From positions 1 to 64,000 of IMG/VR virus record IMGVR_UViG_2930438282_000003: a DNA stretch of 64,000 nucleotides, one strand, 5' to 3'. This document shows, in pieces, positions 14,703 to 24,743 of this stretch. The stretch is from a virus. Taxonomy: Duplodnaviria > Caudoviricetes. A program made the position numbers and the translations under genes. How positions within the stretch are numbered: the stretch's first letter is position 1; every line of letters starts with the position of its first letter. The notes below the pieces were generated by a model that did no database searches, was not told the DNA's origin, and saw only the letters and a list, made by a program, of their open reading frames with translations.

Positions 14703-17700
14703 GTGCCCTACATCAACTCCACCTCCCGCTCCTGGGCGGCAGCATCCGCCGAGGCCAACGCCCCCAAGCGAGTCCGCGCCTACAAGCACGACGGCGGCGA
14801 TCTGTGCGTGTCAGATTGGTTCGCGGGATGCGGAGGCTCCGGACAGGGCGCTGATGCGGTCCCCGGCCTGCGCGTGGCCTTCGCCGCGAACCACTGGCGG
14901 CAGGCCATCAAGAGCCACCAATTCAACTTCCCGGGCGTTGCGCACTACATCGGTGACATCCGCAAGGCCCCTGTCTGGGCCTGGCCGATCACAGACGTCT
15001 TCTGGGCCAGCCCGGAATGCTTCCCGGCCGGAACGCTGATCCTCACCCGACGTGGCCATGTCCCCATCGAGGACGTCCAGGTTGGTGACGAGGTGTTCAC
15101 GCACGAACGCCGGTGGCGGCCGGTCAAGGTCACCATGCGCAAGCTCGCCGAGACCGTGCGCGTGAAGGGCGTCGGATTCGCGGGCGGCATCGAGACCACC
15201 GCAGAGCACCCCTTCTACACCCGCCAGCGAACGAAGGTCTGGCAGGACAAGAGGCATGGCTACCGATGGAGGCTCACCGGTTCACCCGAGTGGACCGAGG
15301 CGAAGAACCTGCAAGGCCGGATGTGGGCAACGCCGATCGACTTCGGTGAGGAGCTACCCGTCCCGCCGGTAGGCGGCCGGGGTGTCGACCAGAACCGCGA
15401 GTTTTGGTGGATGGTCGGCCGCTGGCTCGGCGATGGTTCGCTGCGGCTTAAGCCACGCACCGCGGCCCGCCTGAAGCAGCCGGCCACCCGCCGCGCTCCG
15501 CGCCCAGCCGGCTCCCCGTGCGTCGTCTGTGGGGGTGCGGCCCGTCCCGACGGACGGAGCAACGCGGGCCAGGTGTCGCCCTACTGCTCTACCACCTGCA
15601 AGGCGAAGAACAGCCGGAAGTCCGAGCGCGGCCGGTTCGAGGTGGTCATCTCTTGCGGAAAGCACGAGGTGCAGGAGTTGGGTGCCCGCCTCGCCGAGAC
15701 CACCGGACTCCGCTGGAACCTGCGGGAGATCCGGACGGCCTGCAACTTCACCACGGGGCATTGCGGCCTGACCGAGTGGCTGGTCGAGCACTTCGGTCAG
15801 CACGCGGACGGCAAGGGGCTCCCGGCCTGGGCGCTGACGATGCCCGAGGCTGACCGGCGCGCGTTGCTCCAGGGGTACCTGTCGGCCGACGGCTGTGTGA
15901 GCGCTCCGTACACCTCGATGGCCACGGTCTCCAAGCGCCTCGCGGTCGGTATTCGGCTGCTCGCCAACTCCCTCGGGTACGTCGCGAACATGTCCGGCCC
16001 GCACGTCCGCAAGGGCGTGCGCACCATCGAAGGTCGGGTGGTCAACGAGCGTCCGCAGTGGAAGGTCAACTGGATCACCGATGGCCCGAAGCACGCCTTC
16101 CACGTCGATCAGGACGGGTACCGGTGGGCGCCGGTCAAGTCGGTGGAGCCCACCGGGCGCACGGTTGAGGTCTTCAACCTGAGCGTGGCCGAAGACGAGT
16201 CGTACATGGCCAACGGAATCATGTCGCACAATTGTACGAACTGGTCTATTGCCAAGGGTAAGAAGCGCTCCTTCGCCAAGGCCGTTCAGGGTGACCTGCT
16301 CAGCCTGTATGCGGACATGGAGGAGGAGAAGTTCAAGACGGCCGACCAGGAGGACAACGAGCCGACCGCAGAGGAGGAAGCCAGCCGGGCACTGATGGAA
16401 GAGGTGCCTCTGTACCTGCGCGGGGTGATCGAACGCGGCGGCCTCATCAAGGCCGGTGTGGTCGAGAACGTGGTCGATGTCCGGGCCTGGGCCGAGTGGG
16501 ATGCGTGGCTGGCGGAGTTCCACAAGCTGGGCTACCGGACGCGGGTCATCGCGCTGAACAGCATGCACGCCAACCCGCGCAGAGTGCACCGCGCCCCGCA
16601 GTCCCGCGACCGGCTGTACGTCGGCTACTGGCACAAGAGCCTGGGCCGGACGCCTGACTGGGACAAGTGGCTGCGCCCCAAGGCGTACTGCGCCGGCTGC
16701 GACGAGATGGTTTCCGCCCTGCAGGTCTTCCGCAAGCCCGGCCAGGACATGGGCCGGTACAAGTCGAGCTACGACTACAGGTGCCCGCGCAAGAGCTGCC
16801 GCGCGCTCGTCGACCCGGACGTCCTGCCCGCCGCGGCGGCGATCGACTGGTCCATCAAGGGCACGCCGATCGGCTCCCGCCCGAAGTCGAAGGAGTGCCC
16901 GGAGGGCCTGGCCCCGAACACGATGGCCCGTATCCGGGCCGGGATCGCGAAGTACTGGCCGCAGCCCGGCGAGCAGGTCGGCCAGGAGGCCCTGTTCGAC
17001 GACCAGCCCGCCGGGAAGGTCGCCCCGTTCCTCGTCCCGACCGGCGGCACCTGGCGCAACGGCCCGGCCGGGGTGGACGTCCCGATGTCGACCCGGACGA
17101 CGGTGGAGAGCGACGCCCTGGTCCTCCCGCCCATCCTGATCCCCTGCGAAGGCCGCGAGGGCAAGAAGCCGATGTCCCTTGACGGCCCGCTGCGGACCCA
17201 GACGGCCCGGCTGGAAACGGCGCTCGCCTACGTCCCGTTCGTGGTCCCGATGCGCGGCGGCGGCGACAAGGAGAAAGCGCGGTACGTCAGCCACCCGGTC
17301 CACACGGTCTCGGCCGGCGGCAACCATCACGGCCTGGTCATGGCACCCCGCCCGCTGATCATGCGGAACAACACCCCGAACGGCGATCCCGCCCAGATGG
17401 TCACCGGCGCCGACGAGCCGTTCCGGACCATGACGACCACCGGCCACCAGTCGCTGATCACGCCGGACCCGCTGCTCGTCCCGTACTACGGCAACGGCCA
17501 GGCCCGCCCGACCAGTGAGCCCGTCGGCGCCCTGCCCACCCGTGACCGGTTCGCCCTCCTCGACGCCGACGGCGAGTACGACGTCTCGAAGGTGCTGTTC
17601 CGGATGCTTCAGCCCAAGGAAATCCAGCGGGCGATGGCGTTCGCGGACGACTACAAGATCCTGGGCAGCAAGCGCGACACCGTCCGGCAGCTGGGGAACG

Positions 17701-17816
17701 CGGTTACCCCGAACGCGGCCGAGGTCCTGCTGTGCGCGCTCGTCGAGTGCATCACCGGCGAGGAGATCGACCGCTACGCGCCGCCCGCCGAGCTGGAGTT
17801 CGCCACGACCGCCTGA
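14703..17816 (+). CDS. C5-cytosine DNA methyltransferase precursor containing an intein
   Basis: DWFAGCGG motif I, ANHW, SPE-C-TNWS motif IV (split), VENV motif VI, QSRDR motif VIII, QLGNAV motif X. Confidence 0.93.
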   Translation: MPYINSTSRSWAAASAEANAPKRVRAYKHDGGDLCVSDWFAGCGGSGQGADAVPGLRVAFAANHWRQAIKSHQFNFPGVAHYIGDIRKAPVWAWPITDVFWASPECFPAGTLILTRRGHVPIEDVQVGDEVFTHERRWRPVKVTMRKLAETVRVKGVGFAGGIETTAEHPFYTRQRTKVWQDKRHGYRWRLTGSPEWTEAKNLQGRMWATPIDFGEELPVPPVGGRGVDQNREFWWMVGRWLGDGSLRLKPRTAARLKQPATRRAPRPAGSPCVVCGGAARPDGRSNAGQVSPYCSTTCKAKNSRKSERGRFEVVISCGKHEVQELGARLAETTGLRWNLREIRTACNFTTGHCGLTEWLVEHFGQHADGKGLPAWALTMPEADRRALLQGYLSADGCVSAPYTSMATVSKRLAVGIRLLANSLGYVANMSGPHVRKGVRTIEGRVVNERPQWKVNWITDGPKHAFHVDQDGYRWAPVKSVEPTGRTVEVFNLSVAEDESYMANGIMSHNCTNWSIAKGKKRSFAKAVQGDLLSLYADMEEEKFKTADQEDNEPTAEEEASRALMEEVPLYLRGVIERGGLIKAGVVENVVDVRAWAEWDAWLAEFHKLGYRTRVIALNSMHANPRRVHRAPQSRDRLYVGYWHKSLGRTPDWDKWLRPKAYCAGCDEMVSALQVFRKPGQDMGRYKSSYDYRCPRKSCRALVDPDVLPAAAAIDWSIKGTPIGSRPKSKECPEGLAPNTMARIRAGIAKYWPQPGEQVGQEALFDDQPAGKVAPFLVPTGGTWRNGPAGVDVPMSTRTTVESDALVLPPILIPCEGREGKKPMSLDGPLRTQTARLETALAYVPFVVPMRGGGDKEKARYVSHPVHTVSAGGNHHGLVMAPRPLIMRNNTPNGDPAQMVTGADEPFRTMTTTGHQSLITPDPLLVPYYGNGQARPTSEPVGALPTRDRFALLDADGEYDVSKVLFRMLQPKEIQRAMAFADDYKILGSKRDTVRQLGNAVTPNAAEVLLCALVECITGEEIDRYAPPAELEFATTA
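15018..16232 (+). mobile_element. Intein (405 aa) with LAGLIDADG-type homing endonuclease
   Basis: Starts CFPAGTLILT, block B TAEHPF, LAGLIDADG-like MVGRWLGDG and LLQGYLSADG, ends VFNLSV...MSHN followed by Cys. Confidence 0.92.
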
Positions 17817-17900
17817 CCTGCACGTCCTTAGAAGTCCTTTTGCCTATTCAGATTGGGCTATGCGGTTAGCGCAATCTGAATGGCGTAAAGATGGAAGTAG
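17814..17900 (+). repeat. Conserved upstream hairpin element, copy E
   Basis: TGACCTGCACGTCCTTAGAAGTCCTTTTGCCTATTCAGATTGGGCTATGCGGTTAGCGCAATCTGAAT...GAAGTAG; its TGA is the C5-MTase stop. Confidence 0.88.
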
Positions 17901-17926
17901 ATCAACCCCACACGAATGGAACGCAC

Positions 17927-18829
17927 ATGACCGGCACCCTGCACACCGACCCCACCACGGCCGCCCTGTCCAGGGCCTGCGAGGAAGCCTGGCAGATCGC
18001 ACTCAGCGCCAGAGCCACCTTCCAGCACGGCACCATCGCGTACGTGGCGAGCCTCATCCGTGAGGCCCTGCCCGACGCGGCCGCCATCACCATCGACACC
18101 GACGAAGCCGAGCTGTACGAGATCCGCGACGCGAGTGGCCAGCCGCTGTACCGGGCCCCGTTCACACCCGCCAGCCCCCTCGGCGACAGCGCAGCGGATG
18201 ACATCAACGACCTACTCGCCCAGGTCCTCCCCTTCGGCGGGCTGGAAGACGCCGGATGGGAGACCGCCGCCGAGCGCCTCCCGTACATGACCGTCCGCCT
18301 GCCCGGCGCCCCCGAGGTCGACCGGCGCAAGGCGCACGGCTTCGCCGCCACCCCCTTCCTCATGCTCGACGTCCGCGCCGAGTTCACCGCCGGCAGGCGC
18401 GCGTTCACCGTGGACGGCCCGCACCCGCTACACCAGCGGGAGACCCGTGATCGGATCCGCGCCGCCATGGCCAATGCGGGCTACGACGTCCCCGACGGCG
18501 CCCTCACGGTCACCGCCCACGGCCGCCTCACCCAAGGCGCCACCGCCGCCGACCTCGCGATCGCCGTCACCGCACTCGCCGCCGCCGGGCGCTGCGACCC
18601 GAGCGTCCTGCGCACCGTGGCGTTCATCGGGGAACTCGGCCTCGACGGCCGGGTACTGCCCGTACCCGACGTCAACGGAGCCGTCCGCACCGCATACGCC
18701 AGCGGCTACACCACCGCGGTCGTCGCCGAAGACGACCTCAGCAACGTCGACGTCGCAGGAATCGGGATCCACGGCGTCGACAACCTGCACCTCGCGATGA
18801 CGCTCATGCAGCACTTTGAAGCGAAGTAG
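17927..18829 (+). CDS. Protein with C-terminal ComM/YifB (Mg-chelatase ChlI N-terminal, Lon-like) domain, no ATPase
   Basis: RETRDRIRAAMANAG...ADLAIAV...FIGELGLDGRVLPV matches the ComM N-terminal domain; no Walker A. Confidence 0.78.
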   Translation: MTGTLHTDPTTAALSRACEEAWQIALSARATFQHGTIAYVASLIREALPDAAAITIDTDEAELYEIRDASGQPLYRAPFTPASPLGDSAADDINDLLAQVLPFGGLEDAGWETAAERLPYMTVRLPGAPEVDRRKAHGFAATPFLMLDVRAEFTAGRRAFTVDGPHPLHQRETRDRIRAAMANAGYDVPDGALTVTAHGRLTQGATAADLAIAVTALAAAGRCDPSVLRTVAFIGELGLDGRVLPVPDVNGAVRTAYASGYTTAVVAEDDLSNVDVAGIGIHGVDNLHLAMTLMQHFEAK

Positions 18830-19084: not shown

Positions 19085-19423
19085 ATGGACATCAACCTCA
19101 CGCCGAACGTCGTGAAGTTGCTCCGGGCCTTCCTCGAAGATCCGGAGGAGCGCCACTTCGGCACCCAGCTCACGAAGAAGGCCGGGATCTCGCCCGGCTC
19201 CCTGTACCCCGCACTGCGCCGCCTCGAAGGCGCCGGCTTCATCACCGGCGAGGAGGAGCAGATCGACCCCAAGGCCGAAGGCCGCCCTGCCCGCCGCTAC
19301 TACACCCTGACTGGGGAAGGCGCCCAGGAAGCGCACCTGCTCCTCGCAGAGTTCAGTGCCAGCGTCGCCCCGCCCGCCAGGTCCCCAGGTTGGCTGACCA
19401 GTCCAGCACCCAAGGGGGCCTGA
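19085..19423 (+). CDS. PadR-family transcriptional regulator
   Basis: GSLYPALRRLEGAG...GRPARRYYTLTGEG. Confidence 0.9.
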   Translation: MDINLTPNVVKLLRAFLEDPEERHFGTQLTKKAGISPGSLYPALRRLEGAGFITGEEEQIDPKAEGRPARRYYTLTGEGAQEAHLLLAEFSASVAPPARSPGWLTSPAPKGA

Positions 19424-20023: not shown

Positions 20024-20073
20024 TGTATGGTCCCTAAACGTCCGGTCGTCCTGAGCAGCGGCGCGACCGGCAT

Positions 20074-20148
20074 GCGCCGGAGGTGTAACCGCCGCACGGC
20101 TCCCATTCCAGGGAGCAGGACCACGTTCAAGTCGTGGCCGGCGCTCCA
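20074..20148 (+). tRNA. Non-canonical tRNA-Gly-like gene (75 nt, encoded CCA)
   Basis: Cloverleaf: acceptor GCGCCGG/CCGGCGC, D stem GTGT/GCAC, anticodon stem GCTCC/GGAGC around CATTCCAG, T arm CCACG-TTCAAGT-CGTGG, T73 then CCA. Confidence 0.85.
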
Positions 20149-20153
20149 CGACG

Positions 20154-20180
20154 GGCCCCCGCCATCCCAGGGCGGGGGCC
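20154..20180 (+). terminator. Hairpin downstream of the tRNA-like gene
   Basis: GGCCCCCGCC / GGCGGGGGCC stem followed by TTCGT. Confidence 0.55.
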
Positions 20181-20274
20181 TTCGTCATGCCCCGCAAACC
20201 ACCCTCGGGCCTCGATTGCCCCAGGTCAGCTATCTTTGCCGCCCTTTGTCTCCAGGACCTCGCAGGAGCGGCCC

Positions 20275-21630
20275 ATGTTCCACGGATCGATCCCCGCCCC
20301 CCTCCGCTCGATCATCTACGAGCACGCCGGGACCTGGCCCGGCGAGGACATCTACGTCGGCTGCTCCGGGAACTTCACCATCGAACGGGTGCTGCACGCC
20401 CGGTTCGGCGACACCCGCCGCGTCCACGGCAACGACATCCAGGCCTACAGCTGCGCCCTCGGCTGGTACCTCGCCGGGCAGGACCTCCACTACACCCTGC
20501 GCGACGAGTACGAGGAGCCCCTCGGCTGGCTCCACCCCTACCTGGAGGACCGCACCGATCTTCTCGCCACCCTCATGCTGGGCACCCGGTTCCTGCAGTA
20601 CGTCGGCAAGGACGGCGCCTACTACCGGCGCATGCTGGACGCCACCCGAGAGCAGTGGCCGCGCATGCACGAGAAGACCGCGACGAAACTGCGGAACCTG
20701 GAGACCCGCCTCGGCTCGTTCTTCGCCGGCGACGTCCGCGACTACCTGGACACCGAAGTCCCTGCCGACGCCCCCGTGGTCATGTTCCCGCCGTTCTACG
20801 CGTCGGACTATCAGGCCCAGTTCGCGCCGATCGACGCGGCGTTCGACTGGCCCGAGCCGTCGTTCGACGAGCTGACCGAAGACGGCAAGGAACGCATCAT
20901 CGAACAGGTCCAGGACCGGCCGAACTGGGTCCTCGGCCTGCACATCGAACGCCCCGAACTGCGGGACAAGCTCGCCGGCGTCGTCCAGACCGCGAACCGC
21001 GGCCTCCCCATCTACGTGTACGCGGCGGCCGGGCCGCGCCGTATCGTCCGGCCCCGGCAGCCCATCGAAACGATCCGCATGCCGAAGATCAGCCCCGGTG
21101 AGGACCTCGGCGACCGCATGACGATCCACGTCCTCACCGGCGGCCAGTTCGCCGCGATCCGCTCCCAGTTCATGTCCAAGAGCATCAAGCCCGGCAGCCC
21201 GCTCATCGCGTGCGCGGTCGCCGTCGACGGCAAGGTCATCGGCGCGTTCGCGTACCTGCCGCCGAAGTTCGACCCGAACACCGCCTACCTCATGAGCGAC
21301 TTTCCCGTGTCGTGGACCCGCTATCGGCGTCTCGCGAAGCTGATCGTGATGGCCGCGTCCACGAAAGAGGCGCAGCTCCTCGTCCAACGGTCCCTGTCGA
21401 AGCGGATCGACGCCTGGTCGACGACCGCGTTCACCGACCGCCCCAACAGTGCGAAGTACGGGCGCGGCATCCCCGGCGTGAAGCTGCAGAAACGCACCGA
21501 GGCCAGCCCGAAGGACCCCGGCGACGGCATCCACCGCTACCAGCTCCAGTACGGCGGCCCCCTCGGCACTTACGACCTGAACGAAGCGCTCACCCTGTGG
21601 AAGACCAAGCACGGCAAGGACCTGCGATGA
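20275..21630 (+). CDS. Putative DNA-modification enzyme: degenerate Dam-like MTase domain plus C-terminal GNAT-like domain
   Basis: YVGCSGNFTIE...HGNDI SAM-binding-like region; FPPFY in place of DPPY; C-terminal VAVDGKVIGAFAY / AYLMSDFPV / RYRRLAKLIV / TTAFTD pattern resembling GNAT; AGGAG SD before ATG 20275. Confidence 0.65.
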   Translation: MFHGSIPAPLRSIIYEHAGTWPGEDIYVGCSGNFTIERVLHARFGDTRRVHGNDIQAYSCALGWYLAGQDLHYTLRDEYEEPLGWLHPYLEDRTDLLATLMLGTRFLQYVGKDGAYYRRMLDATREQWPRMHEKTATKLRNLETRLGSFFAGDVRDYLDTEVPADAPVVMFPPFYASDYQAQFAPIDAAFDWPEPSFDELTEDGKERIIEQVQDRPNWVLGLHIERPELRDKLAGVVQTANRGLPIYVYAAAGPRRIVRPRQPIETIRMPKISPGEDLGDRMTIHVLTGGQFAAIRSQFMSKSIKPGSPLIACAVAVDGKVIGAFAYLPPKFDPNTAYLMSDFPVSWTRYRRLAKLIVMAASTKEAQLLVQRSLSKRIDAWSTTAFTDRPNSAKYGRGIPGVKLQKRTEASPKDPGDGIHRYQLQYGGPLGTYDLNEALTLWKTKHGKDLR

Positions 21631-22568
21631 CCGACACCACCACCCCGCTGTTCCGGCCCAAGCTCGTCCGCCGCGACCCCCGCACCCTCACCGGCCTCGA
21701 AGTTAACGCCAGATACATGCGGAAGGAGGAGTACGACCGGCTGGTGGAGAACATCCGCCGCGACGGCTGCCTCACCTCCACCCCCCTCATCTACTCCGGT
21801 GGCGAGTACGCCGAGGGCCGCGAACTCATCCTGTCCGGCAACCACCGCACGATGGCCTCGGTGGAAGCCGGCCTCGAAGAGATCGACTGCATGCTCATCG
21901 AGGAGCAGCTCACCCGCCCCCAGCTCGTCGCGATCCAGCTGTCCCACAACGCCATCAACGGCCAGGACGACCCCGCCACCCTCAAGCAGCTCTACGAAGA
22001 ACTCGACGACGTCGACTGGCGCGCCTACTCCGGCCTCGACGACGAACAGCTCCAGCTCCTCGCCGAAGTCCAGCCCGAGGGCCTGTCGGAGGCGAACCTC
22101 GACTTCGCCACCGTGTCCCTGATCTTCCTTCCGCCCGAGCTCGAAGCCGCCCGCGAAGCCTTCGACCAAGCCCGCCTCGGCCAGAACGAAAGCTGGCTCG
22201 CAGCACGCGCCGACTACCAGCAAACCCTCGACACGCTCGCCTCCACCCACGCCGCTCACAAGGTCGGCAACGTCGCCACCGCCCTCCACGCCATCCTCGC
22301 CATCGTCGAGAACCACCTCGACGAACTCCAGGCCGGCTACACCGCCCCCGACGGCACCCACCTCCACACCGGGCACGTCGGCCTGGAAACCGTCCTCGGC
22401 TCCCGCACCCTCCCAGCACCCGCCGCCGTCACCATCAACAAAGCCATCGGCGCCGCAGAAGGACGGGGGGAGATCGACCAGGGACAGGGCTGGCGCCTAC
22501 TCGAGCGTCTCGCGGGCCAGTACCTGTCCGGCCCGAACCACGAACTCCTCACGGACGGCCCCGAGTGA
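21627..22568 (+). CDS. ParB/Srx N-terminal-domain protein
   Basis: NARYM...LVENIRRDG...ILSGNHR motif; ATGA overlap with the upstream gene. Confidence 0.8.
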   Translation: MTDTTTPLFRPKLVRRDPRTLTGLEVNARYMRKEEYDRLVENIRRDGCLTSTPLIYSGGEYAEGRELILSGNHRTMASVEAGLEEIDCMLIEEQLTRPQLVAIQLSHNAINGQDDPATLKQLYEELDDVDWRAYSGLDDEQLQLLAEVQPEGLSEANLDFATVSLIFLPPELEAAREAFDQARLGQNESWLAARADYQQTLDTLASTHAAHKVGNVATALHAILAIVENHLDELQAGYTAPDGTHLHTGHVGLETVLGSRTLPAPAAVTINKAIGAAEGRGEIDQGQGWRLLERLAGQYLSGPNHELLTDGPE

Positions 22569-23155
22569 GCACCCGCCCACCCATCACCCTCGACCCCCAC
22601 ACCGACCCATGGGAACGACAACCCCACGAGACTCCCAAGAAGCACGGCCAATTCGTCACCTACCGCGACCTCGGACGCACCCGAACCCTTACCGAAGCCG
22701 CTCAGAGGCTGACACTCGCGTACGGGCACGTGAGGAACCTGGCCTCCGAGTACCGGTGGCGGCAGCGCGTCGAGGCGTACGACAGGCACCTGGACGACCA
22801 GTACCAGGCGATGTGGCTGCAGGAGCGGCGGAGGGCCGCCGAGACCGACGCGAAGATCCTCGGGGCGGCGATCGGCAAGCTGGCGCAGCGGCTGACGACG
22901 ATCAACGCGGCCGACATGACCGTGGGCGACTTCATTCGGCTGATGGACGTCGCCATGCGGCACCGGCGGGTCCTGTTCGGTGATCCGACGGAGACGATCG
23001 CGGTCACCGGCGAGGGGGCGAACCCGCTGGCGCAGCAGTTCGCCGAGTTCGCGCAGATGTCCCCGGAGCAGCGTCGCACCAGGCTCGCCGATCTGGCGGA
23101 CTCGGTGAACCAGCGGATCCGCGCGGTCGACGGCAGCGACGACGAGGAGGAGTGA
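22565..23155 (+). CDS. Putative terminase small subunit
   Basis: PWERQPHET...FVTYRDLGRTRTL HTH-like N-terminus; directly before TerL; GTGA overlap. Confidence 0.7.
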   Translation: MSTRPPITLDPHTDPWERQPHETPKKHGQFVTYRDLGRTRTLTEAAQRLTLAYGHVRNLASEYRWRQRVEAYDRHLDDQYQAMWLQERRRAAETDAKILGAAIGKLAQRLTTINAADMTVGDFIRLMDVAMRHRRVLFGDPTETIAVTGEGANPLAQQFAEFAQMSPEQRRTRLADLADSVNQRIRAVDGSDDEEE

Positions 23156-23159
23156 GCCG

Positions 23160-24743
23160 ATGACGGTTGCCGTGAGCGAGCTGGAACACCTGGACGACGC
23201 GGAGGTCTACCGGCAGCTGGAGGCCGCGCGCCGGTCGATGAGCGAGGAGCTGCTGCGGGACCCGGTGACGCTCGCCCGCGGCCTGGACCGCACGTACCGG
23301 ATGCGGCCGCACCTGCGGATCATCGGGGACGCCTTGGCGGAGGTGGGGCGCGGCGAGTACGACCGGCTCCTCATCCTGACCCCGCCGCAGGTCGGGAAGA
23401 GCACGACGGTCGCCGAGTGGTTTCCGTACTGGTGGCTGTGCCTGTATCCCATGGACCGGGTGGCGGTGACGTCGTACGGCGACGACCTGGCGCTGAAGCG
23501 GGGCATGACGATCCGCGGCTACGTCGAGGAGTACGGCCACGAGTACGACCTCGCCCTGCAGTGGGGGTCGTCGGCGAAGCAGGACTGGTCGCTCACCGAG
23601 GGCGGCGGCGTCCGGTCGGTGTCGGTCGGTAAGGGCCTGACCGGGCACCCGGTGAACCTGCTGATCGTGGACGACCCTCACAAGGACCGTGCGGACGCCG
23701 AGTCGGAGGCGTCCCGGCGGGCGCTGCACGACTGGTACTCGTCGACCGCTCTGAAGCGTCTCCAGCCGGACCGGAACGCCGTGGTCGCGATCCAGACCCG
23801 CTGGCATCCGGACGACTTCGCCGGCCGCCGCCTGGAGGAGGAAGGCCGCACCGAGGACGGCGGCCGGTGGAAGGTCATCCACCTGCCTGCGGTCGCCGAC
23901 GCGAAGTTCGGGGCGGACCCGCTCGGCCGGGCCCCGGGGGAGCCGCTGCCTCATCCGAAGATCCCCACCAGGGACAAGAAGGCGCTGCGGGCGTGGTGGG
24001 CGGACATGAAACGCACGTCGATCGTGCGGGACTGGCACGCCCTCGCCCAGGGCGACCCGCAGCCGGCGGAAGGAGCCCTCGTGTCGGACGACCTGCTGCG
24101 GATGCTGCGGGACTCGAGCACCGCGGTGGAGCCGCAGAAGATCGCAGTCGCCATCGACCCCTCGGGTGGCGGACGAGACGTCGCAGGCGTCATCGGCGGG
24201 TTCCTCGGCGACGACGGCCGCGTATGGGTCACCGACGACGTATCGGCGGCCATGTCCTCCGCCGAGTGGTCCACGGTGGCCTGCCTCCTCGCCTATCGCA
24301 CGAACGCGGCGATCATCTACGTCGAGTGGAACTACGGCCGCGACATGTGCGTCCTCGCCATCCAGACGTCGTGGGAGAAGCTCCAGAACGAGGGCGAGAT
24401 CCCCAAGGGCACCCTGATGCCCGCCATCGCTCCGGTCCGCGCCAAGCAGGGCAAGCTGCTGCGGGCGGAGCCGATCGCCCAGCAGATGGTGCAGGACAAG
24501 GTCCGCTTCCGGGGCGTGTTCACCGACATGGAACGCGAGTGGGCCACCTGGCAGCCCACCGACCCCGACTCGCCGGGCCGTATCGACGCCTCCTGCATCC
24601 TCATCTACGGCCTCATCCCGGAAGCGAACCAGGGCGCCATCGCCCACGCCCCGCTCCCGAAAGCCCCACAGGCTAGCCAATTCGGGCGGGGCGGCCCGGC
24701 GGGCGGTGCCGCGGCGGCGTATGGACGGAGGATCGGCAAGTGA
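23160..24743 (+). CDS. terL: Terminase large subunit
   Basis: Walker A PPQVGKST, Walker B LLIVDDP, QTRWH coupling motif, nuclease-domain AIDPS, YVEWNYG, KLLRAEP. Confidence 0.9.
   Translation: MTVAVSELEHLDDAEVYRQLEAARRSMSEELLRDPVTLARGLDRTYRMRPHLRIIGDALAEVGRGEYDRLLILTPPQVGKSTTVAEWFPYWWLCLYPMDRVAVTSYGDDLALKRGMTIRGYVEEYGHEYDLALQWGSSAKQDWSLTEGGGVRSVSVGKGLTGHPVNLLIVDDPHKDRADAESEASRRALHDWYSSTALKRLQPDRNAVVAIQTRWHPDDFAGRRLEEEGRTEDGGRWKVIHLPAVADAKFGADPLGRAPGEPLPHPKIPTRDKKALRAWWADMKRTSIVRDWHALAQGDPQPAEGALVSDDLLRMLRDSSTAVEPQKIAVAIDPSGGGRDVAGVIGGFLGDDGRVWVTDDVSAAMSSAEWSTVACLLAYRTNAAIIYVEWNYGRDMCVLAIQTSWEKLQNEGEIPKGTLMPAIAPVRAKQGKLLRAEPIAQQMVQDKVRFRGVFTDMEREWATWQPTDPDSPGRIDASCILIYGLIPEANQGAIAHAPLPKAPQASQFGRGGPAGGAAAAYGRRIGK

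Follow-up and report, generated by a model that had tools for sequence, protein, structure and literature searches.

Positions 20,074 to 24,743 of the viral record IMGVR_UViG_2930438282_000003 (Caudoviricetes) hold a gene for a glycine-type, transfer RNA (tRNA)-like molecule, a gene for an enzyme that joins a Dam-like domain to a GNAT-like domain, a ParB-like gene and the two terminase genes, in that order. We read the first three as a phage DNA-modification module in which a private tRNA-Gly, poorly suited to translation, would act as the dedicated donor for Gly-tRNA-dependent modification of a DNA base, and we give this reading a probability of about 0.58. The source element is a provirus record of 110 kb with 67% G+C, whose genes have their nearest relatives in Streptomyces; the window, meaning the whole stretch of DNA analysed here, is its first 64 kb (64,000 nucleotides, nt). 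The features of the locus, all on the + strand, are the following.

20074..20148, +, tRNA-Gly-like gene of 75 nt (sequence and fold; independent model R2, 72.4 bits, E 5.8e-15)
20149..20185 (approximate), +, GC-rich hairpin that abuts the CCA end, no U-run (minimum-free-energy structure)
20275..21630, +, Dam-like/GNAT-like fusion enzyme of 451 amino acids (Pfam, AlphaFold2 model, fold matches)
20278-21090, +, Dam-like domain of the fusion enzyme (PF22555)
20785..20799, +, motif IV of the Dam-like domain, FPPFY (residues 171-175) and not (D/N/S)PP(Y/F/W) (51-sequence alignment)
21112-21615, +, GNAT-like domain of the fusion enzyme (PF22559)
21627..22568, +, ParB-like partner gene (phrog_7405, E 8e-68; phrog_620, E 8e-12; fold model)
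22565..23155, +, TerS, terminase small subunit (phrog_6299, E 3.7e-24)
23160..24743, +, TerL, terminase large subunit (phrog_38, E 1.6e-78; weak Terminase_6N in Pfam, weak termin_lrg_T7 in NCBIfam)

The CCA end of the RNA is separated by 126 nt from the ATG of the enzyme gene at 20275, and the four protein genes are joined by an ATGA overlap (21627-21630), a GTGA overlap (22565-22568) and a 4-nt gap (23156-23159). A preliminary description of this DNA, made from its letters, had put the spacing at about 125 bp with the same junctions and had named the ParB-like, TerS and TerL genes; the measured distances and the PHROGs matches agree with it on all these points. In NCBIfam, no family matches the enzyme, the ParB-like protein or TerS.

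The tRNA-Gly-like RNA and its linkage to the enzyme

The predicted fold of the RNA at 20074-20148 is a cloverleaf; its acceptor stem has 7 bp, its T-arm loop is canonical (UUCAAGU), and it has U73 and an encoded CCA. The identity set of the bacterial glycyl-tRNA synthetase (GlyRS) consists of G1-C72, C2-G71, U73, C35 and C36 (PMC9976931), and the whole of it is present in the cloverleaf, together with G3-C70. The anticodon region reads UCC followed by A within an 8-nt loop (CAUUCCAG), position 8 is A, and the D-loop is without GG. The universal features of tRNAs that serve translation, namely U8, G18G19, a 7-nt anticodon loop with U33 and a call by general tRNA finders, are thus absent from this RNA. 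ARAGORN calls no tRNA in the 64-kb window, and Rfam (E<=10) returns no tRNA match for the element, its only match being a weak one to the tRNA-like mascRNA (19.8 bits); hence "tRNA-like" is the apt term. We also built a covariance model, R2, from 35 ARAGORN-called tRNA-Gly genes that lie beside homologous enzymes at other loci, leaving the window RNA out of the training set to avoid circularity. When run against the 64-kb window, R2 finds the element with 72.4 bits (E 5.8e-15), and this is its sole match at E<=1. The earlier proposal of a glycine-type, tRNA-like gene is therefore borne out by the cloverleaf, the identity set and the R2 score. In a Streptomyces relative (L004/L083), the 8-nt loop of the window RNA recurs with a compensatory change in the anticodon stem, and in another relative (L085) the loop has 7 nt, which indicates that the odd loop is maintained and is not a product of decay.

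The same combination of features is seen in the wider family, for which 137 matches gave 118 distinct RNAs. U73 is present in 118/118 and GCG...CGC in 117/118; C36 never varies, conservation of C35 is 90% or higher, and compensatory change is found in 18 of the 22 helix pairs. Position 34 is U, C or A across these RNAs, and ARAGORN additionally types GCC in two loci. A8 occurs in 31/118, a D-loop without GG in 65/118 and a T-loop other than TTC in 28/118. Among the 100 RNAs with a seven-nt anticodon loop, 21 have C33 and 17 have a pyrimidine at position 37; positions 32-38 are C-G in 83/108 and G-C in 11/108, so that the loop is closed to five bases. As a host control we took 9 canonical tRNA-Gly sequences from 3 module-carrying Streptomyces genomes, and all nine show U8, GG, U33, A37, A38, TTC and G49-U65. 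The T-stem differs between the two sets: pair 49-65 is C-G or G-C in the module RNAs versus G-U in host tRNA-Gly, and pair 51-63 is mostly A-U versus G-C or C-G. It is through these two pairs that the non-proteinogenic tRNA-Gly of S. aureus evade EF-Tu (PMC9976931), and by analogy the pairs found in the module RNAs may lower the affinity for EF-Tu.

Two more ordinary origins of the RNA were considered and set aside. Codon supplementation is unlikely, since a UCC decoder would find little use where GGA makes up 8.4% of the Gly codons (six genes of the element), and since the RNAs vary at position 34 and have degenerate loops. The RNA was also rejected as an attP remnant: its cloverleaf is complete and stands beside late genes, Gordonia and Mycobacterium phages have the RNA too, and it is never of another amino-acid type. 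A chromosomal RNA of similar appearance was seen in Streptomyces (L178 and L186, genome G002), where a tRNA-Gly(UCC) with a D-loop lacking GG and a TGC T-loop, like many phage-type RNAs, sits among host tRNA genes beside a tRNA-Gly(GCC) cluster. We guess that this tRNA-Gly is non-proteinogenic and might serve, for instance, the glycine cross-bridge of the cell wall.

To follow the linkage between the RNA and the enzyme, we gathered 162 related loci, of which 3 are phage records, 79 are viral contigs and 80 are contigs from genomes. Streptomyces, Micromonospora, Nonomuraea, Kutzneria and Nocardiopsis are among the sources of this last group, as are metagenome-assembled genomes (MAGs) labelled Oscillospiraceae, Chloroflexi, Synergistaceae, Selenomonadaceae and Dormiibacterota. 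ARAGORN finds a tRNA on the same strand within 600 nt upstream of the enzyme gene at 114/162 loci; 107 of them are typed as Gly (anticodons UCC, CCC, ACC and GCC), and the other 7 have odd loops. In all 162 loci taken together there are just 5 non-Gly tRNAs, none of them adjacent upstream. With another model, R1, a tRNA-Gly or tRNA-Gly-like gene is found at 134/162 loci (60/82 plus 74/80), including ARAGORN-negative elements of Gordonia phages, in which the T-loop has departed from the canonical form. A small number of copies are placed differently, on the opposite strand, 3' of the ParB-like gene or 1.6-2.4 kb upstream. Two further viral scans seeded with distant members and read with ARAGORN, R1 and Rfam gave Gly tRNAs only, or none. 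The RNA accompanies the homologs across Actinomycetota, Bacillota, Chloroflexota and other MAGs, and in Mycobacterium phage Cepens a tRNA-Gly is annotated 88 nt before the homolog. Since the collections overlap and the prophages are related, the enzymes were also clustered, with loci from one further viral scan added to the 162; RNA-containing clusters number 38/52 at 70% identity and 22/29 at 50%. Retention of the RNA beside homologs had been named beforehand as a check on the idea, and both the locus count and the 70% clusters support it. At the Bacillota-type loci L055, L162, L201, L207 and L074, tandem tRNA-Gly pairs stand upstream of the enzyme. The two copies differ in anticodon at three of these loci, with CCC and ACC at L162 and L201, and ACC plus an ARAGORN-uncalled copy reading UCC at L074.

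The third component is linked even more tightly, as a ParB-like homolog lies directly downstream of the enzyme at 159/162 loci and the 3 exceptions are truncated or degraded matches. By tblastn, a TerS-like gene follows at 108/162 loci and a TerL-like gene at 58/162; the annotations of the Gordonia and Mycobacterium phages place no terminase immediately downstream of the RNA, enzyme and ParB-like genes. The constant partner is the ParB-like gene, not the terminase. Consequently, the coupling to DNA packaging suggested in the preliminary description stands as gene adjacency but does not extend to the Gordonia and Mycobacterium phages. The N-terminal half of the ParB-like protein has the ParB/Srx fold with NAR, SGNHR and QLSHN motifs, of which SGNHR (GxxR-type) is invariant or nearly so in an alignment of ParB-like proteins; the C-terminal half is helical in a low-confidence model, with an overall predicted local distance difference test score (pLDDT) of 71. 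Foldseek matches the modelled protein with probability 1.0 to ParB (7bm8, 7bnr, 6sdk) and Noc (7nfu), and also to KorB chains; Pfam returns no family for it at E<=0.01. Proteins of this kind activate phage T-dioxygenases (5mYOX; PNAS 2026, PMC13229309).

The Dam-like/GNAT-like fusion enzyme

Two Pfam families match the enzyme above their gathering scores within one polypeptide: PF22555 (DAM-like-phage1) at residues 2-272 (E 7e-105, 350.6 bits, cut-off 27) and PF22559 (GNAT-phage-like) at residues 280-447 (E 1.5e-57, 194.4 bits, cut-off 27). The homologs listed with both domains carry them fused, and Pfam has both domains without a function. An AlphaFold2 model computed from a 51-sequence alignment reached a pLDDT of 92.0 and a predicted template modelling score of 0.70.

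In this model, residues 1-254 match Mcbe1 best (7m6b, Z 13.0), followed among others by E. coli Dam (2g1p_B, Z 12.6, 189 residues aligned, root-mean-square deviation (rmsd) 4.3), DpnM (2dpm, Z 11.8, 201 residues aligned) and M.TaqI (Z 10.4). A PDB sequence search based on the family profile produced nothing but spurious kinase matches (E>=0.004). The likeness to Dam and DpnM, which are alpha-class enzymes, covers the fold and the domain order, a glycine-rich motif I, the acidic D54 after strand 2 and a motif IV of the PP-aromatic type. The enzyme departs from them in its fused GNAT domain and in the first residue of motif IV, which is F, Y or H in 51/51 sequences.

The canonical motif IV of N6-adenine methyltransferases is (D/N/S)PP(Y/F/W). 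In 51 sequences with identities down to 36%, position 171 is F in 34, Y in 16 and H in 1, and never D, N or S, while P172, P173 and F174 are invariant (51/51). N6 methyl transfer by the usual mechanism is thus unlikely. GCSGN (motif I), D54 and D153 are likewise invariant in 51/51 and, judged from sequence, would be compatible with a pocket for a nucleotide or for S-adenosylmethionine (SAM).

An intein is present in seven homologs (P0014, P0016, P0022, P0027, P0042, P0108 and P0119) and at loci L025, L138 and L147, with protein lengths of about 680-710 amino acids. It sits directly after FPPFY; in P0022, the N-extein ends ...FPPFY, the intein runs from C to HN, and the C-extein restarts with S. 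P0014 and P0022 are labelled "Hint domain-containing protein", and P0027 carries a LAGLIDADG Pfam match. Inteins tend to occupy functionally critical motifs, and their position directly after FPPFY therefore marks this motif as important.

The C-terminal half (residues 279-432) matches many GNAT chains with probability 1.0, the best being 1y9k (Z 11.5). Its match to the S124A form of Mu Mom (8bv8_A) has Z 10.3 and an rmsd of 3.1 over 139 residues. The Q/RxxGxG/A motif of GNAT enzymes binds the pyrophosphate of coenzyme A (CoA). From a reading of the alignment, the beta4-alpha3 loop of this half is without such a glycine-rich motif. Residues Y338, D342, F343, K355, E365, T383, T384, S392, K394, Y395 and R397 form an invariant set, and the GNAT domain, with 17 invariant columns among 39 sequences, matches the Dam-like domain in degree of conservation. 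Both halves of the enzyme had been assigned in the preliminary description, the first as Dam-like with FPPFY in place of DPPY and the second as GNAT-like; the fold matches (Z 12.6 to Dam, Z up to 11.5 to GNAT chains) confirm the two assignments.

A proposed Gly-tRNA-dependent DNA modification and its alternatives

Silva et al. (Nat Commun 2026, PMC13219725) describe how Mom of phage Mu moves glycine from Gly-tRNAGly to the N6 of adenine in double-stranded DNA, with the glycyl product then rearranging to N6-carbamoylmethyl-deoxyadenosine. That Gly-tRNA is the donor for Mom had been stated with reserve in the preliminary description, and the statement is correct. The folds, the altered motif IV, the identity features of the RNA and the linkage of the three components across distant phages are observations; from them we infer the following course of events. 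The host GlyRS would charge the RNA, a step proposed on the ground that its glycine identity set is complete. With its 8-nt loop, A8, no G18G19 and T-stem pairs unlike those of the host, the RNA is probably a poor substrate for translation, and we propose that the Gly-tRNA pool is for this reason reserved for the enzyme. The Dam-like domain, having lost the polar residue of motif IV and kept the PPF pocket, would bind DNA and flip out a base, most likely an adenine. The GNAT domain would then move the glycyl group from the 3' end of the tRNA to the flipped base, and the product may rearrange to N6-carbamoylmethyl-adenine, as with Mom. The ParB-like protein may activate the enzyme or load it on DNA. 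Finally, co-expression with the terminase genes would time the modification to late infection and packaging, and the packaged DNA would presumably resist host nucleases. In the reading first put forward for this locus, the element supplies its own non-translating Gly-tRNA for glycylation of a DNA base and thereby protects its packaged DNA from restriction. The parts of it that can be computed, that is, the folds, the co-occurrence and the fact about Mom, have held up, while glycine transfer, a DNA acceptor and resistance to restriction keep their conditional standing.

Several observations weigh against this proposal. The structural match to Mom is tied in Z with those to ordinary acetyl-CoA GNATs, and hence the fold alone does not point to an aminoacyl-tRNA donor. 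Nor is there a sequence relation between the GNAT domain and Mom: hhalign gives a probability of 1% for the family versus Mu Mom and of 3.8% for the GNAT profile (39 sequences) versus a Mom profile (24 sequences). The invariance of GCSGN, D54 and D153 leaves room, at the level of sequence, for SAM binding and perhaps some methyl transfer. Many family RNAs look like usable tRNAs, as ARAGORN types them as Gly, and some of them may serve translation too. The collections overlap and the prophages share ancestry, and raw counts therefore overstate independence. Furthermore, 28/162 loci have no tRNA-like gene within about 4 kb by ARAGORN and R1, so the private RNA is not obligatory. One of the cases is a close relative, L086, which has a 91% identical enzyme and whose upstream region has been replaced. 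Another is a clade of 13 loci on viral contigs (L034-L048, enzyme about 42% identical), in which no tRNA-like gene lies within 4 kb while the enzyme, the ParB-like gene and TerS are kept. In 10 distant tRNA-less loci, Rfam gave 0 matches at E<=0.1. The open reading frame (ORF) just upstream of the enzyme in this clade (L034) has no Pfam match, which leaves a guess of DUF488 unsupported, and no DUF488 is found in the provirus of the window. The RNA-less loci suggest that host Gly-tRNA can serve the enzyme there, in which case the private RNA may have arisen as a means of sparing or bypassing the pool used in translation.

The enzyme was also considered as a member of the Mom family (PF25680) and rejected as such. 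Pfam gives it no PF25680 match, Mu Mom itself matches PF25680 only, and besides the hhalign values just given, the Mom hidden Markov model is touched by 1/39 GNAT domains, at E 0.049. With those same hhalign values (1%, 3.8%), no reliable alignment carries the catalytic residues of Mom (R111, S124, D149 and R151; PMC13219725) over to the GNAT domain. A protein-atlas feature search with residues 275-451 returned a top named cluster with 21% Mom-family members (score 0.88), which we take as a lead only.

Given that the linkage statistics would fit any functional tie between RNA and enzyme, the RNA could instead be the enzyme's substrate, a decoy or a regulator, with the enzyme modifying (Gly-)tRNAGly, or with the phage tRNA-Gly replacing or shielding a host tRNA-Gly under attack from a defence system. 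GNAT toxins such as TacT, which acetylate Gly-tRNAGly, recognise U73 and G71 (PMC9976931), and these positions are invariant in the RNA family; host systems that target tRNAGly exist as well, FaRel2 being an example from a literature listing. We nevertheless regard this explanation as unlikely. A Dam fold that includes the DNA-recognition part, with 189-201 residues aligned to Dam and DpnM, favours DNA as the ligand, as does the ParB-like neighbour at 159/162 loci, and in the window element the module adjoins late packaging genes. Moreover, replacement tRNAs should remain good decoders, yet many of the family RNAs have lost U8, G18G19, U33 or the 7-nt loop.

We consider it very unlikely that the enzyme is a non-canonical, SAM-dependent DNA methyltransferase, with the GNAT domain as an accessory that uses acetyl-CoA or nothing and the tRNA-Gly supplementing translation or hitch-hiking. 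Motif IV is without D, N or S in every one of the 51 sequences, and the GNAT domain, with its 17 invariant columns, is no less conserved than the domain it would merely accompany. Only glycine tRNAs are linked to the enzyme, with any base at position 34 and with universal features often lost, and GGA codons are rare in the element. What speaks for a methyltransferase is the invariance of GCSGN, D54 and D153 together with the Dam fold (Z 12.6), the typing of many upstream RNAs as ordinary tRNA-Gly by ARAGORN, and the name "putative antirestriction adenine methyltransferase" that databases give the protein; this name, however, was not found in the literature searched. Alternatively, Gly-tRNA may be the donor and the acceptor something other than DNA, either a protein (the ParB-like protein, the terminase or the capsid) or a small molecule, with the Dam-like domain as a scaffold. 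Most known GNAT-type transferases that depend on aminoacyl-tRNA do act on peptides, proteins, lipids or natural products (PMC13219725), and the ParB-like protein is always adjacent. Against this stand the conservation of the PPF base pocket and of the Dam-type DNA-binding architecture and the example of Mom, which has DNA as its substrate and is the one GNAT known to combine Gly-tRNA with a flipped adenine; a non-DNA acceptor thus appears very unlikely to us as well.

The proposal of a Gly-tRNA-dependent DNA modification can be taken further, in a form that we put forward as tentative and rather doubtful. The enzymes may constitute a widespread class of phage "aminoacyl-tRNA:DNA transferases" separate from Mom in evolution, with a translation-incompetent viral tRNA as dedicated cofactor. 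The former SAM pocket might hold glycyl-A76 beside the flipped adenine, or it might add a second, SAM-dependent step, the resulting base would be a hitherto undescribed one, distinct from N6-carbamoylmethyl-adenine, and a nucleotide switch in the ParB-like protein could load the enzyme in step with packaging.

Among known systems, Mom (PF25680; 8bv8; PMC13219725; preprint 10.1101/2023.03.24.534169) resembles the module in its phage GNAT fold, in a link to tRNA-Gly, which is proven for Mom, and in a presumed anti-restriction role. Unlike the window enzyme, Mom is a stand-alone protein of about 240 amino acids that uses host tRNAs and grips DNA with a helix-turn-helix-like insert; the window enzyme has its GNAT domain fused to a Dam-like domain, an obligatory ParB-like neighbour and usually a tRNA gene of its own. 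FemXAB and the non-proteinogenic tRNA-Gly of S. aureus offer a parallel in chargeable isoacceptors that evade translation, carry changes at 49-65 and 51-63 and feed a GNAT-fold aminoacyl-transferase (PMC9976931). The Fem proteins differ in being cellular enzymes with two GNAT domains and no methyltransferase-like domain, acting on a peptidoglycan precursor; the fold lists of the enzyme, which came from searches not aimed at FemX, showed no conspicuous FemX-type chain. As for the 5mYOX dioxygenases (PMC13229309), an adjacent ParB/Srx-fold protein is needed there for activation, as a ParB-like gene follows the enzyme at 159/162 loci here, but those enzymes are Fe/2-oxoglutarate dioxygenases that act on T. 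The parts of PMC13219725 that were covered, which do not include its supplements, contain no mention of any term beginning with Mycobacter, of Dam-like, of fusion or of ParB. In a literature search that took in neither the supplements of PMC13219725 and PMC13229309 nor the 2013 survey by Iyer and colleagues, no description of a tRNA-Gly/Dam-like-GNAT/ParB module was found.

To our knowledge, Mom is the only enzyme that uses a charged tRNA on DNA, and it borrows that tRNA from the host. On our best reading, the module departs from the known case of tRNA-dependent DNA hypermodification in four ways: its GNAT belongs to another lineage, a base-flipping domain is fused to it, the ParB-like partner is obligatory, and the tRNA is a dedicated one. 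If this is true, a second, unrelated GNAT lineage carries out tRNA-dependent chemistry on DNA, and the RNA would be the first virus-encoded tRNA with a job outside translation, which would change how phage tRNA genes are read. ParB-like proteins would likewise have a wider role as activators of DNA-modifying enzymes, and a new DNA base or a sequence-directed glycyl-transferase would serve as a tool. The module is present in hundreds of phage and prophage contigs, including cultivable phages of Gordonia (such as Jollymon and Clawz) and of Mycobacterium smegmatis (such as Cepens), and the idea is therefore testable at the bench now.

Surroundings of the module

The hairpin at about 20149-20185 lies between the genes for the RNA and the enzyme and is possibly a terminator or a processing signal. 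The fold z-score of 20060-20200 is -3.25, and similar hairpins occur 3' of the RNA in Gordonia phages. A scan for T-run terminators did not call this hairpin, and a promoter scan found no sigma-70-type promoter.

A small membrane-protein ORF precedes the RNA gene, and the packaging genes lie downstream of the module. Among the upstream genes (17891-18829, +, and 19085-19423, +) are those for a ChlI/Lon-C-type domain protein (PF13541, E 4e-14) and a regulator of the PadR family (E 1e-10). Since homologs of the PadR-like gene and of the membrane-protein ORF are found upstream in just 8/162 and 4/162 loci, respectively, both lie outside the module. Finally, the ORF at 14703-17816 (+) encodes a C5 cytosine DNA methyltransferase of 1037 amino acids, split by an intein that includes a LAGLIDADG homing-endonuclease part; its Pfam matches are DNA_methylase, Hint_2, LAGLIDADG_3 and Intein_splicing. 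The provirus thus has a second DNA-modification gene.

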